Shown: positions 32,010 to 63,568 of the stretch, piece after piece
How positions within the stretch are numbered: position 1 is the stretch's first letter
Layout: every line of letters begins with the position of its first letter
From: a virus
Virus record (IMG/VR): IMGVR_UViG_3300012348_000173
Location: 29,919-93,918 of that record
Strand: one strand, 5' to 3'
Length of the DNA: 64,000 nt
Notes under the pieces: generated by a model
Databases searched by the model: none
Seen by the model: only the letters and a program-made list of their open reading frames with translations
Told to the model about the DNA's origin: nothing
Program-made: the position numbers and the translations under genes

Positions 32010-32849
32010 TTATCCTGTTGGAGGTAAGGTTGATGCACCGGTCTCAACGTGAACGTGGCTAAGAAGAGATATGCTATTTGCTAAAACGTCTGATGACGAA
32101 GATATTGTACCTTTCACGTCAGTTGTTCCTTTAACCGATACGTTATCAGAGACGCGTAAATCGCCTGCTTCTAAATTCATATTTCCTGGAGCGTTCACGT
32201 TAACAGATGATCCAGATCCTATTTCCAATCCGCCGCTTGAGCCTAAGGTCATTGATGCTCCACTGACCATTATGCTTTTTCCACTGCTCATTTGAACGCA
32301 GCTTCCTGATACGATTGATGACTGATCACCAGACACAATTGATTTAGAATTGCCTCCAACAATATTGTTAGAGTTACCCATGACTTTAGTGTCAGAATTT
32401 CCATGAACGGTTGTGGTTAAATTTTCCGAAACGTTAGCACCGATATCTCCTACAATATCAGCTGCAATCCCACCACCATTTACTTTAGTTTTTATTTTTC
32501 CATCAACCTGAAGATTAAGATCTTTCTTAACATATAGGTTATAGTTTCCTCCAATTGTCGTTTCACAATCTCCAAGAATTGTTATAGACGCTCTTCCGCC
32601 AATAAAGATCTTACCGTCACGTATGATCGTAACCCAATCATCTCCAAGAATATTAAGAGTGCGGGATCCGTCGGCTACAAATGTTTCGTATGATCCAGAC
32701 TTATGCTGTCGATGAATTCGTTCAGCACCTAATGTGTCGTCAACCTCGTGGATATGACCTGAGCGTGAGCGTGTTACGCTATTAAATGGGTATACCGTTC
32801 CACCACTTTGTAGCGGCGGATTCCAGGATGTAGATGCATCTTCACTCAT
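32010..32849 (-). CDS. gp5: gp5 C-terminal part: beta-helix spike with HxH tip
   Basis: YPFNSVTRSRSGHIHEVDDTLGAERIHRQHKSG; 8-residue VxG repeats; ends SLLSHVHVETG. Confidence 0.88.
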   Translation of the reverse strand: MSEDASTSWNPPLQSGGTVYPFNSVTRSRSGHIHEVDDTLGAERIHRQHKSGSYETFVADGSRTLNILGDDWVTIIRDGKIFIGGRASITILGDCETTIGGNYNLYVKKDLNLQVDGKIKTKVNGGGIAADIVGDIGANVSENLTTTVHGNSDTKVMGNSNNIVGGNSKSIVSGDQSSIVSGSCVQMSSGKSIMVSGASMTLGSSGGLEIGSGSSVNVNAPGNMNLEAGDLRVSDNVSVKGTTDVKGTISSSSDVLANSISLLSHVHVETGASTLPPTG

Positions 32850-32855
32850 ATGTTA

Positions 32856-33845
32856 TTAAGCAGACGGTATAATTGTGATTGCTGACCGTGTATTATTTAT
32901 TGATCTTTTTCGTATGTTAACTCTGTTGCCAACGGTATTTCCATCAATTGACGTATAGTTCCCATTTGCATCGCTGTCACTATTAGCGATCCCAACGTGA
33001 GATATTGCAAACGTCACTATGTCTCCTCTCTTAACATACCTAGGATTAAATCTAAGTTGTGCATATGGCTTATTTACAGCCCACTCTTCAAAACCAAACG
33101 CTTTTGCGGTTTTTGGTCGAGCTGTTTCTGGTAAAACTCCAGACGTTCTTATACACCATGATGCGAAAGCTGCACACCATGCCTGCCTTGCAGAATATCC
33201 GCCTGGATATTCGGTGGCGCTCCAATATTTCTGAATACCAGGCCCTTGGTTATCGGACGTCTCAATGATACCTTGTCGATATTCATTTTCTGCAACAGCT
33301 GCTAACTTATCACCTGCCCCGCCAGCAATGGTTGGCGGGGTTTGCGTAGAATCAAAGGATGTCGTTATTGGTATAGCATTTGAGTATACTCCTGTTGCGG
33401 TGCTTCCTGCACCATAACTATTCATTACAGTTGATGCTCCAGGCGCAGTTAATGTACCTGCCTCAGGAGGAATATCATTACCCAGGAAAGAACCAAATGT
33501 CTTATGCGGATCGCCATATCCCATGTTTGATGTCACGTCAAACCCAACATCATAACCACTCGCGGACGCGATTGTTGCGACAACTACAGGATCTTGCAGT
33601 TCTTGACCATCTCTAAAAAATCCAAACACCCATGTATTTGGAACCAATGCAGTTGCACTTATACCAATGCCAGCAACACTTGCTGACGTAGTTGGAAGCA
33701 TTACCGTGGCAAGAGGCAAATCTATTGTGGGTAACTGCGTGCGGTCAGGCGTATGATAACCAAGACAGCGAACACGAACACGACCTTGTCCTGTAGGATC
33801 ATTTACGTCTTCAACTATACCAACAAACCAATCATTAATTATCAT
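32856..33845 (-). CDS. gp5: gp5 N-terminal OB-fold fused to CHAP peptidoglycan hydrolase
   Basis: WFVGIVEDVNDPTGQGRVRVRCLGYH...WVFGFFRDG; then AWCAAFASW...SHVGI...SIDGNT. Confidence 0.9.
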   Translation of the reverse strand: MIINDWFVGIVEDVNDPTGQGRVRVRCLGYHTPDRTQLPTIDLPLATVMLPTTSASVAGIGISATALVPNTWVFGFFRDGQELQDPVVVATIASASGYDVGFDVTSNMGYGDPHKTFGSFLGNDIPPEAGTLTAPGASTVMNSYGAGSTATGVYSNAIPITTSFDSTQTPPTIAGGAGDKLAAVAENEYRQGIIETSDNQGPGIQKYWSATEYPGGYSARQAWCAAFASWCIRTSGVLPETARPKTAKAFGFEEWAVNKPYAQLRFNPRYVKRGDIVTFAISHVGIANSDSDANGNYTSIDGNTVGNRVNIRKRSINNTRSAITIIPSA

Positions 33846-38231: not shown

Positions 38232-38807
38232 ATGCCTACAATAGAAGACATAAAAACAGTGATAAGTCGCCGAGGCGGTTTGGCTAAACCAAACCGCTTT
38301 AAGGTAGACTTTGCGGGTTTAAGCGCAATCAGACTTGATGTTGATGTTAATTATAGCGATCTTAATTTTCTTGTTGATAACATCAGCATACCGGGGCGTG
38401 TAATTAACACATTTGAATATGCTATATTGAATCATTCGGTTAAGATACCATCTGCATACGATGAGGATGATGTAGAAATTGTGTTTAACCTTACAAACGA
38501 CTTTATGCCTAAAAAGATTATTGATGCATGGGCTGCAAAGGTAATTAACCAAGGATCATATCTTGCTTCATATGCAACTGACTATAAATGCAATGTAACG
38601 ATTTCTCAGCTAAATGAAAACGATGATGTTGTATATGCAGTCATATTAAAAGGCGCATACCCAATTGCTTCAAAGGGGTTATTCCTTGATAACAGCGCAG
38701 AGTCAACCGTATCTAGGTTTAGCTGCACGTTAACATATGATCGTTTTGAAAATGTCAAAGATGAACGTGAATCCTACGGACGTCCAATCTCAACGAATTT
38801 AGCATAA
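38232..38807 (+). CDS. gp54: Tail-tube initiator / gp19-gp54 family
   Basis: GGLAKPNRFKV, SIPGR, ISQL, LKGAYP. Confidence 0.7.
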   Translation: MPTIEDIKTVISRRGGLAKPNRFKVDFAGLSAIRLDVDVNYSDLNFLVDNISIPGRVINTFEYAILNHSVKIPSAYDEDDVEIVFNLTNDFMPKKIIDAWAAKVINQGSYLASYATDYKCNVTISQLNENDDVVYAVILKGAYPIASKGLFLDNSAESTVSRFSCTLTYDRFENVKDERESYGRPISTNLA

Positions 38808-38819
38808 GATATATACAAT

Positions 38820-39524
38820 ATGAGTTTACCAATTATTTCATCTCCAAAGTATACACTAGAGATTCCTTCAACACGTGAAGTTATTGAATACCGTCCTTTC
38901 CTTGTAAAGGAAGAAAAGATTTTGCTTATTGCGCAAGAAAGCCAAGATCAGGGGCAAATTATGAATGCGCTTAAGGATGTTGTTTCGGCATGTACTTACG
39001 GTAAAATCAATCCAGATAAACTTACGCCATATGATTTGGAATATGTTTTCATTAAGCTGCGCGCTAAGAGCGTAGGCGAAGTATCAACCGTTGGTATTAA
39101 ATGTAAAGAATGTAAGACAGATAATAAGGTTGACATTAACCTTGATGATATAACAGTAAGCGGAGAACTACCAAATTCACGCATACAACTTACAGACACG
39201 ATCGGCGTCAACATGAAGCCAATGTGCATGAGAGATCTCACAAAAATTGCCTTGAAGCAAAAAGCTTCAACCGCAGATCAGATGACCGATACAATCATTG
39301 CTAACATTGAAAGCATTTACGATCAAAGCACAATTTACCTTAAAGAAAATTCAACTCGCGAGGAAATGGAAGCGTTCATTGGATCTTTAAACCGCACTCA
39401 AATGAAAAAGATTGAGGAATTTATTGAAGGGCTTCCTAAGGTAAAGCATGATGTAAATTTTAAATGTACATCATGCTCAACAGTTAATTCTCAAACAATA
39501 AGCGGTATACAATCTTTTTTCTAA
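38820..39524 (+). CDS. gp26: Baseplate hub assembly protein
   Basis: YRPFLVKEEKILL, DLEYVFIKLRAKSVGE, two CxxC, C-terminal GIQSFF. Confidence 0.9.
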   Translation: MSLPIISSPKYTLEIPSTREVIEYRPFLVKEEKILLIAQESQDQGQIMNALKDVVSACTYGKINPDKLTPYDLEYVFIKLRAKSVGEVSTVGIKCKECKTDNKVDINLDDITVSGELPNSRIQLTDTIGVNMKPMCMRDLTKIALKQKASTADQMTDTIIANIESIYDQSTIYLKENSTREEMEAFIGSLNRTQMKKIEEFIEGLPKVKHDVNFKCTSCSTVNSQTISGIQSFF

Positions 39525-39694
39525 TATGCCTCTCACATGAATCTTTAGAAAATATCTATAGGACCAATTTTGCGTTGATGCATCAGCATAAATATAGTCT
39601 AACTGAAGTTGAAAATATGATGCCATGGGAGAGGGAAATTTACGTAAGTCTCCTTATCAATTTCATAGAAGAGCAAAACAAAAAAACACAATAA
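39521..39694 (+). CDS. gp51: gp51-like ORF (absent from ORF track), in the -1 frame of gp26
   Basis: Manual translation LICLSHESLENIYRTNFALMHQHKYSLTEVENMMPWEREIYVSLLINFIEEQNKKTQ*; first in-frame ATG only at 39578. Confidence 0.8.
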   Translation, partial: LICLSHESLENIYRTNFALMHQHKYSLTEVENMMPWEREIYVSLLINFIEEQNKKTQ

Positions 39695-39698
39695 GTAA

Positions 39699-41498
39699 AT
39701 GGCAACATCAGTGGAGCTATCAGACGAAAAGAATTTATCAACTGTCATCAATTATTTGCGTGATAGCAACGCAACTGAAGACCTGTTGCTAGATGAAGTT
39801 GTAACGCATAAAGACGTGTTGGCCAGCGATGCGTCTAAAAAGCTCGTCTCTGATGTTCCAGTGCTGCTAGAATATATCGGTGAAGTTTTGACTGACATGC
39901 TTGAAGTATCAAAAAGCATTGTTAAGAACAGTTTTCAGCTTATACAAAACGACAGAGAAAACGCAGAGGAAGCTCGTTTGCGCGCAAACGATAATAAGAG
40001 CAGCGATAGGGCGACTAGTTCTGTTACCTTTGGGGACGTTAAGAGTAAGCTGAATGAAGGCATTTTCGGAAATCTTCTATTAACTGGAATATTTGGGCTA
40101 GGTACAATCGTCGGTTTTGTTGAGGAGATTGTAAAAATGATTAAGAAGACTCGAATTGCGAAGTGGGTTAAGTCGATGACAACTAGCTTCAAAGAAACGA
40201 GTGTAGGAAAATTCATTGATGACGTATCAAAATTTGTCAGTACACAAGCTAACAAAATTAAAGAGTACACTGTTGGAATAGTTGATAAAGTAAAGTCATT
40301 CTCTAAAAATACTTTTGCTAAGCTATTCTCTAAAGACAAAGGTATATTTTCCTTCGTCGGTAAAGGGTTAGAATTTATACAAAAAGCCTTTTCATTTTTT
40401 AGGGGAGGCGGAAAGCTTAGCTTCATTGATGATATAGGTAAGCTATTATCAAAGTTTAGCTTTTTCTATAAAATCGGAAAAGGGTTTGGTAGAATTTTAG
40501 GTAAGCTAGCATTACCTTTGACAATCATCATCACTGCATTTGAAACTATATCAGCTGCAATAGAAGGATATAAAGCTGAAGGAATACTAGGTGCAGTTAG
40601 AGGTGGAATCGGCGGTCTATTAAGTTCACTTGTTGGTTCTGTAGCGGACTTGCTTAAAGATGGTTTATCTTGGGCATTTAAGAAGCTTGGTTTTGAATCA
40701 GTATCTAAAGCACTTGATAGTTTTTCGTTTAGTGAACTCTTAACAACTGGTGTTGATGCAATCTTTGACACGCTTGAGTATTTTGTTGAATATCTAAAAA
40801 CAGAATTTTCATTCACTAAGCTAAAGGAATCCTTTGATAAATTCGGATTGGCTGGTTTTCAAATAATGGTCGTCGGGGGAATAATGAACATGATGAAAGG
40901 AGCAGTTTCGTGGCTCCTAACAGTATTTGGGCAAACCGACGAAGCCGCAGCTTTAGATGGATTTTCATTTCAAGAATTCTTTAATTCTATTTTACAAGCT
41001 AGAAACGATCTTATCAACAAGATCAAAGATTCAGTATTTTTAGCTGTCTCTAAGATTGGTAAATGGTTTAACTCTATTCCACAAGAAATGGAAAATTTGC
41101 TTAAATCAACAGTTGATGTATCATCGAACTTAATAAAGACTATTCTTCAAAACGTATTACCTAAGCCTGATACGACAAAGTCATGGTATGATCCTATTAA
41201 CCTTGCAGCTGCAGCAATTCCAGCTAGCGTTTATGAATATGCTGGAATGGATCCGAAGACTGGTAAGGTTATTAGCACTGTAGGGATTGAAAAGCCCGCT
41301 GCTGTTACGCCTATACCGAAACAAACCGCGGCCGCTATATCAAATGGAGGAGTTGCTGCACCGGTTACAATCATCAACAATAACATAAACAAAGGTGGAG
41401 ACGTACACAACGTCTCGAACAGCAATGTCAATAATAACGTAAATGGCGCCGCCGGTCCAATATTAACCGGCAGCGCCATGGGATTATATGCGGTCTAA
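39699..41498 (+). CDS. Probable tape measure protein (gp29-like)
   Basis: 599 aa helical, hydrophobic Gly-rich central segments, NNN-rich C-terminus; follows gp26/gp51. Confidence 0.65.
   Translation: MATSVELSDEKNLSTVINYLRDSNATEDLLLDEVVTHKDVLASDASKKLVSDVPVLLEYIGEVLTDMLEVSKSIVKNSFQLIQNDRENAEEARLRANDNKSSDRATSSVTFGDVKSKLNEGIFGNLLLTGIFGLGTIVGFVEEIVKMIKKTRIAKWVKSMTTSFKETSVGKFIDDVSKFVSTQANKIKEYTVGIVDKVKSFSKNTFAKLFSKDKGIFSFVGKGLEFIQKAFSFFRGGGKLSFIDDIGKLLSKFSFFYKIGKGFGRILGKLALPLTIIITAFETISAAIEGYKAEGILGAVRGGIGGLLSSLVGSVADLLKDGLSWAFKKLGFESVSKALDSFSFSELLTTGVDAIFDTLEYFVEYLKTEFSFTKLKESFDKFGLAGFQIMVVGGIMNMMKGAVSWLLTVFGQTDEAAALDGFSFQEFFNSILQARNDLINKIKDSVFLAVSKIGKWFNSIPQEMENLLKSTVDVSSNLIKTILQNVLPKPDTTKSWYDPINLAAAAIPASVYEYAGMDPKTGKVISTVGIEKPAAVTPIPKQTAAAISNGGVAAPVTIINNNINKGGDVHNVSNSNVNNNVNGAAGPILTGSAMGLYAV
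41443..41479 (-). terminator. Intrinsic terminator for gp32, inside the 3' end of the tape-measure gene
   Basis: ATGGCGCTGCCGGT-9 nt-ACCGGCGGCGCCAT on the minus strand (14 bp with one G-U), followed by U-rich TTACGTTATTATT. Confidence 0.65.
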
Positions 41499-62497: not shown

Positions 62498-62815
62498 TTA
62501 GGAGTTGAGAGCTGCGGTAATTTTTTCCTTTACGGTTTTGAACGGAATCGTTGCACCAGTTCCGTAAACCAGGTCAGCACGCGGAGATACGAACTGATTG
62601 CGAACTGCTTGATACTTTTCGGTCCCGAAGAGTTTCTCGAGACCGGCGTGATCCCAATCAAACGTTCGGCCGAGGCGACCTGCATTGTAGCGTCCGTTGC
62701 ACATGAATGTCATTGCGCATCCAATGGTGATATCGTTTACGCGATACTCAAGCCACTTTCTTTTGGGAATTGCCGGCTGTGGGGTAACGTCGACTGATGT
62801 AAATTTGATTTTCAT
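62498..62815 (-). CDS. Hypothetical early protein
   Basis: First gene after promoter repeat. Confidence 0.7.
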   Translation of the reverse strand: MKIKFTSVDVTPQPAIPKRKWLEYRVNDITIGCAMTFMCNGRYNAGRLGRTFDWDHAGLEKLFGTEKYQAVRNQFVSPRADLVYGTGATIPFKTVKEKITAALNS

Positions 62816-62886
62816 AATGTGGTGGTTTCCTTACAGAATCATTATAAACGGAAAACGATCAGATGTAAACAAGAAATTTCACAAAA
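62816..62886 (-). repeat. Early-promoter repeat, copy 5
   Basis: -10 at 62841-46, -35 at 62864-69. Confidence 0.92.
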
Positions 62887-63279
62887 TTAGCATTTTTTTC
62901 GTCGTGCAATGTTCTTCGCTGTCCCGGATTTTTCACGCCCTGGACGGACCCAAGCTAGGTCGAGGTCGCTTCCGAGTGTCATTGCAGTGTCACGTTCATT
63001 GTCTGATGTATATCCACCGGTGGACAAAAATTCCCCATGCAGATTTCGGGGTTCGGTGAACATGTGAAAAACATTAACGTGCGGCTTATGATGATTGGCG
63101 GCGAGGAATTTTTGTGCTAAGGTATCGGCGCCACGGGCATCGCCTACGACGAAGTGATAACCGAGATCACAATACTGTGTTAGGAGAGGTACGTAGTGAT
63201 CTTGAAATTCTTCCTCAGTGAGATCAAGGTGTCCGCTGACAAAAACCGTGCGAGAGTGGTGAGTATCTTTAGCGTGCAT
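62887..63279 (-). CDS. SLOG/DprA-like nucleotide-binding protein
   Basis: VFVSGH, FVVGDARGADTLAQ, RDTAM, SGTAKNI; start trimmed to MHAKD. Confidence 0.7.
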   Translation of the reverse strand: MHAKDTHHSRTVFVSGHLDLTEEEFQDHYVPLLTQYCDLGYHFVVGDARGADTLAQKFLAANHHKPHVNVFHMFTEPRNLHGEFLSTGGYTSDNERDTAMTLGSDLDLAWVRPGREKSGTAKNIARRKKC

Positions 63280-63568
63280 TATGCAGTCTGATGATTGTTT
63301 CGATTCCAGCACGCATCTTTTCAGCGGCCGAAGAGTTTGCAGAGTGAACGTGAATGATTGGAGGAACAAAGCCTCGGAGAGCAACCGCTTCCTCGATCCA
63401 AAGAACCACATCATATCCAGTTCCGATTTCATTGTCATCGCCAAGGTCATGATCGAGGCTAAGCTCAGTCACCAGACCAGCGTGTAGCAAATCAATCGTG
63501 TCGTCAGGATTGTATGTTCGGAACCATCCTTGCGGAGTGACTCTTTCGTCATCGAGAAAAACTTTCAT
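63269..63568 (-). CDS. Cyclic-phosphate-processing receiver-domain protein
   Basis: VFLDDER.TP.GW, LSLDHDLG, GTGYDV, VHSAN. Confidence 0.85.
   Translation of the reverse strand: MKVFLDDERVTPQGWFRTYNPDDTIDLLHAGLVTELSLDHDLGDDNEIGTGYDVVLWIEEAVALRGFVPPIIHVHSANSSAAEKMRAGIETIIRLHNAR

Follow-up and report, generated by a model that had tools for sequence, protein, structure and literature searches.

The gp26-like locus and its surroundings

The window, as we call the whole stretch of 64,000 nucleotides analysed here, comes from an IMG/VR record of 93.9 kb with a completeness of about 52%, which belongs to an uncultured freshwater T4-like phage. Near-identical partial contigs were found in freshwater and wastewater metagenomes. 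At the locus described here, the genes follow each other in the order tube-like gene, gp26/51 and tape-measure-like gene (Table 1). Where a tube-family gene could be found in relatives, it was located 7–72 nt 5' of gp26 in 55 of 56 cases and 258 nt upstream in the other one. On the 3' side, the next gene starts only 5 nt past the stop codon of the extension described below. It displays a weak collinear BLASTP match to T4 gp29 (590 aa, E 0.003) and is of near-equal length. Its identity rests on weak matches, position and size.

Table 1. Features of the gp26-like locus (positions in the window; predicted features are marked as such)
Feature	Position	Strand	Basis
Tail-tube-family gene (191 aa, gp54/gp19-like), directly 5' of gp26	38232-38807	+	phrog_45 'tail tube' 2e-30; PF06841 weak
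gp26-like gene (zero-frame product, predicted short chaperone form, 234 aa)	38820-39524	+	PF12322, phrog_150
N-terminal half with predicted chaperone fold, residues 1-107, CxxC hairpin at its end	38820-39140	+	structure matches
C-terminal half with predicted chaperone fold, residues 108-234, second CxxC hairpin at its end	39141-39521	+	structure matches
Putative slippery heptamer T_TTT_TTC, X_XXY_YYZ phase	39515-39521	+	sequence; conservation in relatives
Zero-frame stop TAA, directly behind the heptamer	39522-39524	+	sequence
-1 frame extension (gp51 C-terminal domain), 57 codons and stop	39521-39694	+	phrog_634, BLASTP
Tape-measure-like gene (599 aa), T4 gp29 position	39699-41498	+	phrog_167 'tail length tape measure protein' 4e-5

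A signal for a -1 frameshift can be seen directly at the 3' end of the gp26-like ORF, which reads TCT (39513-39515), TTT (39516-39518), TTC (39519-39521) and TAA. From position 39521, 57 codons can be read in the -1 frame before a TAA is reached at 39692-39694, and the residues encoded first are LICLSHESLENIYR. The predicted products are 234 aa and 234 + 57 = 291 aa long, and the junction in the predicted long form reads ...GIQSFFLICLSHESLENIYR. The original prediction had named this signal (T TTT TTC before the stop, followed by a 57-codon -1 frame) as well as a tape-measure-like gene next to it. The first is confirmed in the sequence, and the second is supported by the weak matches to phrog_167 and T4 gp29 given above. 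Contigs from four public metagenome runs (three studies) span positions 39486-39559 and agree without a single inserted or deleted letter, so that the T6 run cannot be put down to an assembly error.

Taken as a lone sequence, the heptamer with its -1 frame is only moderately unusual. There are 62 other in-phase heptamers in ORFs of at least 100 aa in the window, few of which precede a long -1 frame. The weight of the case for frameshifting lies on conservation. Another TTTTTTC in phase, at 62894-62900 (+) inside the + strand ORF 62703-63059, precedes a -1 frame that is open for 55 codons. This ORF is probably not a real gene, since it overlaps a longer - strand ORF (62887-63450).

We also noticed that, on the - strand of the window (32010-33845), two neighbouring ORFs share the gp5 homologue (baseplate hub and tail lysozyme) between them. 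ORF 32856-33845 matches the N-terminal part and also an endolysin-like region, ORF 32010-32849 the middle and C-terminal part of phrog_430.

Conservation of the heptamer and of the overlapping frame

The extension is homologous to the C-terminal domain of gp51. It matches phrog_634 'baseplate hub assembly catalyst' (3e-26) and, by BLASTP, residues 213-244 of T4 gp51 (E 4e-4), and its nearest Atlas clusters carry PF28602 Gp51_C (Pfam 38.1). In addition, it matches positions 236-276 of the 282 positions of the phrog_150 profile. Since these are the last 40 positions of the profile, some members of this family combine the two parts in a single chain. Conservation of the extension sets in at residues 4-6 (LSHxSLxNxYxTNFxLMQHHKYSLTELxNMxPWERxxY), with a mean pairwise identity of 56% versus 41% for the gp26 domain, and the extension is under strong purifying selection. 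A PDB sequence search with the extension profile resulted in only two chance-level matches (E about 0.7). A complex prediction for the extension and the upstream tube-like protein gave a score of 0.00, which is evidence neither way.

We compared 83 sequences, consisting of 80 IMG/VR loci (their gp26 is 35–50% identical to that of the window), the cyanophages P-RSM6 and S-CAM1 and the window itself. In all of them, the extension is read in -1, its first base being the last one of the FF codons. The heptamers of this set are TTTTTTC (55), TTTTTTT (24) and TTTTTTA (4). The same arrangement could be observed in five further lineages, represented by the KVP40-like Vibrio phage phi-pp2, Sinorhizobium phage phiN3, Methylophilales phage Melnitz, Pseudoalteromonas phage XG4 and Synechococcus phage S-N03. 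An alignment of gp26 3' ends had been proposed as a check on the original prediction, and its outcome is clear: the 89 relatives, which come from several phage lineages, all keep T_TTT_TT(C/T/A), and none of them has the gp51-like ORF in a frame other than -1.

Among the 84 distinct sequences, the heptamer takes the form TTTTTTC (55), TTTTTTT (24) or TTTTTTA (5), and its last base is never G. The base that precedes the FF codons and completes the heptamer is T in 84/84, compared with a background of 37% T at third positions, and it is supplied by seven different codons (AGT, TCT, GAT, AAT, GCT, GGT and CGT) for six amino acids (Ser, Asp, Asn, Ala, Gly and Arg). TTT serves as the first Phe codon in 84/84 versus 75% elsewhere in these genes. 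These patterns show a strong constraint at the putative slip site that acts on the nucleotides and not on the protein alone. The counts are not independent trials, however, because the relatives are phylogenetically related. In the set of 83, the zero-frame stop follows the heptamer directly in 14 sequences, after one codon in 64 and after 3–8 codons in 5; in 78 of the 83, it is thus found within 0–1 codons.

It is possible that gp51 is a separate small gene, i.e. that translation of the 57-codon ORF or its last 38 codons begins internally or at a non-canonical start codon, perhaps because ribosomes re-initiate once gp26 has terminated. The position of the gp26 stop, within 0–1 codons of the -1 ORF, would agree with this, and public records do annotate 'baseplate hub assembly catalyst' genes of about 40–65 aa whose ATG lies a few codons past the beginning of the ORF (P-RSM6, S-N03). 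Moreover, about 20 of the 83 sequences carry a start codon close to the beginning of the extension, slightly upstream or no more than a few codons inside it, and in roughly a quarter of the relatives a separate small product is thus possible. However, no ATG, GTG or TTG precedes the conserved block in about 63 of the 83 sequences, and this is why some records (S-CAM1) annotate no gp51. The original prediction, according to which the gp51-like residues begin before any in-frame start, therefore holds for about three quarters of the relatives. It also holds for the window, where the first TTG and ATG of the -1 frame are codons 19 and 20, with the conserved LSHxSLxNxYxTNF block lying 5' of both, and no Shine-Dalgarno sequence could be found ahead of these two codons. 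A separate gene would furthermore leave unexplained why T_TTT_TTN and the preceding third-base T are invariant, and why a whole gp26 domain stands ahead of the same tail in T4 gp51. We regard this explanation as very unlikely. Annotation of gp51 is inconsistent overall: it is absent in S-CAM1, a 39-aa 'hypothetical protein' from an internal ATG in phi-pp2 and 47 aa long in Melnitz.

For the -1 slip that we favor, possible stimulators appear to be lineage-specific, since a hairpin exists in some lineages and is absent in the window. No hairpin was found downstream of the heptamer in the window (fold z = +0.7), as had been suspected from inspection by eye, and there is no upstream Shine-Dalgarno-like element in the window either (the letters there are AGC GGT). 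Among the relatives, a hairpin with z below -2 follows the heptamer in only 20 of 84 sequences and is thus not a general feature. Stable hairpins about 6–70 nt 3' of the heptamer (z -2.6 to -5.7) occur, for example, in P-RSM6, which has a GGAGGG as well, the KVP40-like phage, phiN3 and S-N03. Upstream, GAGG or GGAG is found 8–10 nt 5' of the heptamer in 52 of 84 relatives versus a background of 11%; one example is located at 2470-2560 of locus L001. The Glu codon at this element is GAG in 31 and GAA in 15 cases, with a GAG background of 24%. The element may be a stimulator of the dnaX type, for example in cyanophages, but the motif also encodes a conserved Glu-Gly. With neither element in the window, the efficiency of slippage there would have to come from the heptamer, perhaps aided by the stop codon next to it, which may slow the ribosome.

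The extra base could also arise during transcription, if RNA polymerase stuttered on the T6/T7 run and added one U, so that the long form would be translated from edited mRNA. No stimulatory RNA structure would then be necessary in the window, and it is true that the homopolymer run is the sole invariant element and extends to T7 in 24 of 84 relatives. However, productive transcriptional slippage in bacteria generally needs runs of about 8–9 or more, whereas the run never exceeds 7 among the relatives and T6 followed by C is the commonest form. The strict X_XXY_YYZ phase and the lack of G at the last position follow the rules of tandem tRNA slippage, and the codon-biased Shine-Dalgarno-like element fits a ribosomal stimulator of the dnaX type. 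Judging from the DNA sequences alone, we regard an edited mRNA as very unlikely as well.

Finally, although T6 runs are error-prone and a few singleton database proteins (P0123, P0128) hold both parts in frame, a homopolymer sequencing error or the decay of what would be a single in-frame gp51-like ORF can be ruled out, since the identical break is present in 89/89 relatives from isolates and metagenomes, no indel occurs in four independent runs, the extension is under strong purifying selection, only about 10 in-frame long forms were found, and the top 120 of at least 7,857 homologues are nearly all 234–240 aa long (five have 243–261 aa, none is near 290). In the rare singletons P0123 (294 aa), P0128 and P0122, the extension continues the gp26 domain without a change of frame. 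Either homopolymer errors or naturally occurring in-frame variants could account for them. P0123 reads ...PEFFRLTLSHDS... in one frame, which is the form expected of the slip product.

The gp26 protein and its predicted fold

The gp26-like protein of the window matches PF12322 T4_baseplate over residues 9-234 with 196.3 bits (E 7e-58; cut-off 24.5 bits) and phrog_150 with 1e-59. An AlphaFold2 model (mean pLDDT 85) displays two similar halves, each of which consists of strands, then helices and then a hairpin with a CxxC motif. We compared the model to 48,161 solved chains using VIA-align, a search that is independent of Foldseek. The best matches of the N-terminal half, all covering model residues 1-95, were 3fgx_B (Z 8.0, 85 residues aligned, rmsd 3.8), 2ob9_B (Z 6.8) and 3klu_A (Z 6.4). 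Of these, 2ob9 is the HK97 tail assembly chaperone and 3klu is YqbN (YqbN/XkdN). The C-terminal half, when folded alone (pLDDT 90.7), matched best to 3klu_A (Z 6.3, 93 residues aligned) and 2ob9_B (Z 4.5). Hence a resemblance to the same few chaperone structures is observed at the top of the ranking for both halves, with Z values that are middling (4.5–8.0).

Other searches were less informative. A Foldseek query of gp26 against the PDB gave nothing significant (HK97 2ob9 was found at rank 11, E 0.8), and a PDB sequence search with gp26 or T4 gp51 gave no match. The named Pfam chaperone families did not match the gp26 protein of the window. PF10109 Phage_TAC_7, the P2 gpE family, gave matches just short of the cut-off in 2 of 40 homologues; the best one, to residues 130-190 of homologue P0072, reached 24.9 bits versus a cut-off of 25. 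An hhalign comparison of the gp26 profile with the single P2 gpE sequence found nothing.

Four cysteines of gp26 are invariant or nearly so, the invariant Cys95 and Cys98 (39102-39113) in the first hairpin and Cys216 and Cys219 (39465-39476) in the second. In hhalign, one CxxC hairpin aligns with the other (probability 78%); both weakly match many zinc-ribbon Pfam families, and the four cysteines probably form one zinc site that bridges both halves. Beyond these hairpins, hhalign did not align any part of the N-terminal half with the C-terminal half. An internal duplication in gp26 therefore rests on structure. On the basis of the model, we interpret gp26 as two covalently joined chaperone-fold domains that are related to the lambda and HK97 chaperones at the level of the fold; it is not a demonstrated member of any named Pfam chaperone family.

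Two genes in T4, and known and proposed frameshifts in other tailed phages

The T4 proteins gp26 and gp51 belong to the same families as the products of the window. T4 gp26 (208 aa) consists of PF12322 alone (215.6 bits), while T4 gp51 (249 aa) carries PF12322 in residues 1-201 (4e-52; 177.5 bits) and then a tail that is homologous to the -1 ORF of the window. T4 thus encodes a short and a long form as two paralogous genes without a slippery heptamer, in contrast to the window with its one gene directly 5' of the tape-measure-like gene. This difference in copy number could be observed throughout the genomes compared: T4 has two copies of PF12322, but the complete, heptamer-bearing genomes of P-RSM6, S-CAM1, phi-pp2, phiN3, Melnitz, XG4 and S-N03 have one each. 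One copy was also found in the window's own record, which is only about 52% complete. A full-length gp51 gene is present in about 1,375 Straboviridae records.

As a two-gene control set, we used six Straboviridae (T4, Octan, 44RR2.8t, Pm5461, RB16 and VR7). The end of T4 gp26 (...RGLKEFFELL) aligns with that of the window protein (...SGIQSFF), but T_TTT_TTN is absent at the homologous place in all six phages, where codons such as GAG TTC TTT, GAA TTT GTT and AAC TTA TTA are found. FF is not conserved as protein in these phages either, and their gp51 continues in frame. The strict FF of the one-gene lineages therefore appears to be best explained as a requirement of the slip site. This is in line with the original prediction, in which the terminal Phe-Phe was thought to be kept because it encodes the slip site.

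The layout of the two genes varies. In Escherichia phage RB16 (L104, 1301-2594), gp48 and gp54 are directly followed by gp51 and gp26, which share one strand and are arranged head to tail, a layout that looks like an intermediate of a tandem duplication. In T4, unlike RB16, the two genes are divergent. In the GenBank record of Acinetobacter phage Octan, 'tape measure protein assembly chaperone' is the name given to gp26 as well as to gp51.

A -1 frameshift in tail assembly chaperone genes is a textbook case of recoding. Its conservation, with lambda gpG/gpGT as the model, was reportedly described by Levin in 1993 and by Xu, Hendrix and Duda in 2004, 2013 and 2014. The window resembles lambda G/GT in that two overlapping frames, the second of them in -1, lie between a tube-family and a tape-measure-like gene, with a heptamer at the end of the first frame that would yield a short and an extended product. 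The predicted fold of gp26 also resembles solved chaperones of this class (HK97 2ob9 and YqbN 3klu). However, the heptamer differs (G_GGA_AAG in lambda, U_UUU_UUC in the window). The chaperone part of the window is a predicted tandem double domain with four cysteines and a probable zinc site, and it has no significant match to a named chaperone Pfam. Between the extension and lambda T, no similarity could be detected.

Closer in its slip site is P2 gpE/gpE+E', which comes from a phage with a contractile tail and uses a -1 slip on a U6 run (T_TTT_TTG) just 5' of the tape-measure gene T. The gpE family PF10109 nearly matches the C-terminal half of one gp26 homologue, as mentioned above. In P2, however, gpE is a single domain of 91 aa, and the zero frame continues for several codons past the slip site.

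According to a review of recoding, G-T frameshifting is conserved in long-tailed phages 'except T4' (PMC5009743). Because both halves of gp26 match chaperones and a tape-measure-like gene follows, a switch of the lambda G/GT type is very probably present in the very group that was listed as the exception. We found no report of a gp26/gp51 frameshift in a full-text literature search; most subscription journals are outside its coverage, and such a report could exist. None of the GenBank records that we opened contains a joined (slippage) CDS; they hold either two separate genes or gp26 alone. The mechanism and its logic are those known from G/GT; for this gene family, for a double-domain chaperone and for this phage group, they are new.

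We consider it highly likely that one gp26-like gene gives rise to products of 234 and 291 aa by a -1 slip, although this rests on sequence comparison, without protein, ribosome-profiling or reporter data. The slip itself and its efficiency are inferred, and the binding partners of each part are proposed by analogy. A majority of ribosomes would terminate at the TAA at 39522 and release the 234-residue protein, with its two chaperone-fold halves that are each closed by a CxxC hairpin. In a minority, the P-site tRNA-Phe on UUU and the A-site tRNA-Phe on UUC would shift back by one base on U_UUU_UUC. Both could re-pair perfectly on UUU, and reading in the -1 frame would add 57 codons, so that a product of 291 residues with the gp51 C-terminal domain would result. 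This pair would be equivalent to T4 gp26 and gp51 and would act like lambda gpG/gpGT. The shared domain may hold the tape-measure protein encoded just 3', while the extension may connect it to a component of the hub or the tube during hub assembly. Neither form would remain in the virion. T4 gp26 and gp51 are known as hub assembly chaperones (Leiman et al. 2010, PMC3004832), and T4 gp51 is essential and needed for hub assembly, yet absent from the particle (PMC3004832).

The one-gene frameshift may be the general and perhaps ancestral route in T4-like phages (Kyanoviridae and KVP40-like, phiM12-like, pelagiphage-like and freshwater phages), with T4 genes 26 and 51 as the result of a later duplication. 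To us, the case for and against this broader proposal seems evenly balanced. If it is true, tail-chaperone frameshifting would be universal in long-tailed phages, and the long unexplained 'catalytic' gp51 would be a GT-type adaptor whose chaperone part is a covalent double domain that carries a zinc site.

The evidence indicates that the T4-like group also uses a tail-chaperone frameshift, and T4 proper may be a derived two-gene case. A testable function is thereby suggested for two proteins, gp26 and gp51, whose labels since the 1970s have been 'hub assembly chaperone' or 'essential protein of unknown function' (PMC3004832). Annotation could be corrected in hundreds of genomes of cyanophages and of marine and freshwater myoviruses, in which gp51 was missed or begins at an arbitrary internal ATG. 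The 89 one-gene genomes with the heptamer and the two-gene genomes without it would also offer a natural comparison for the gain and loss of recoding.
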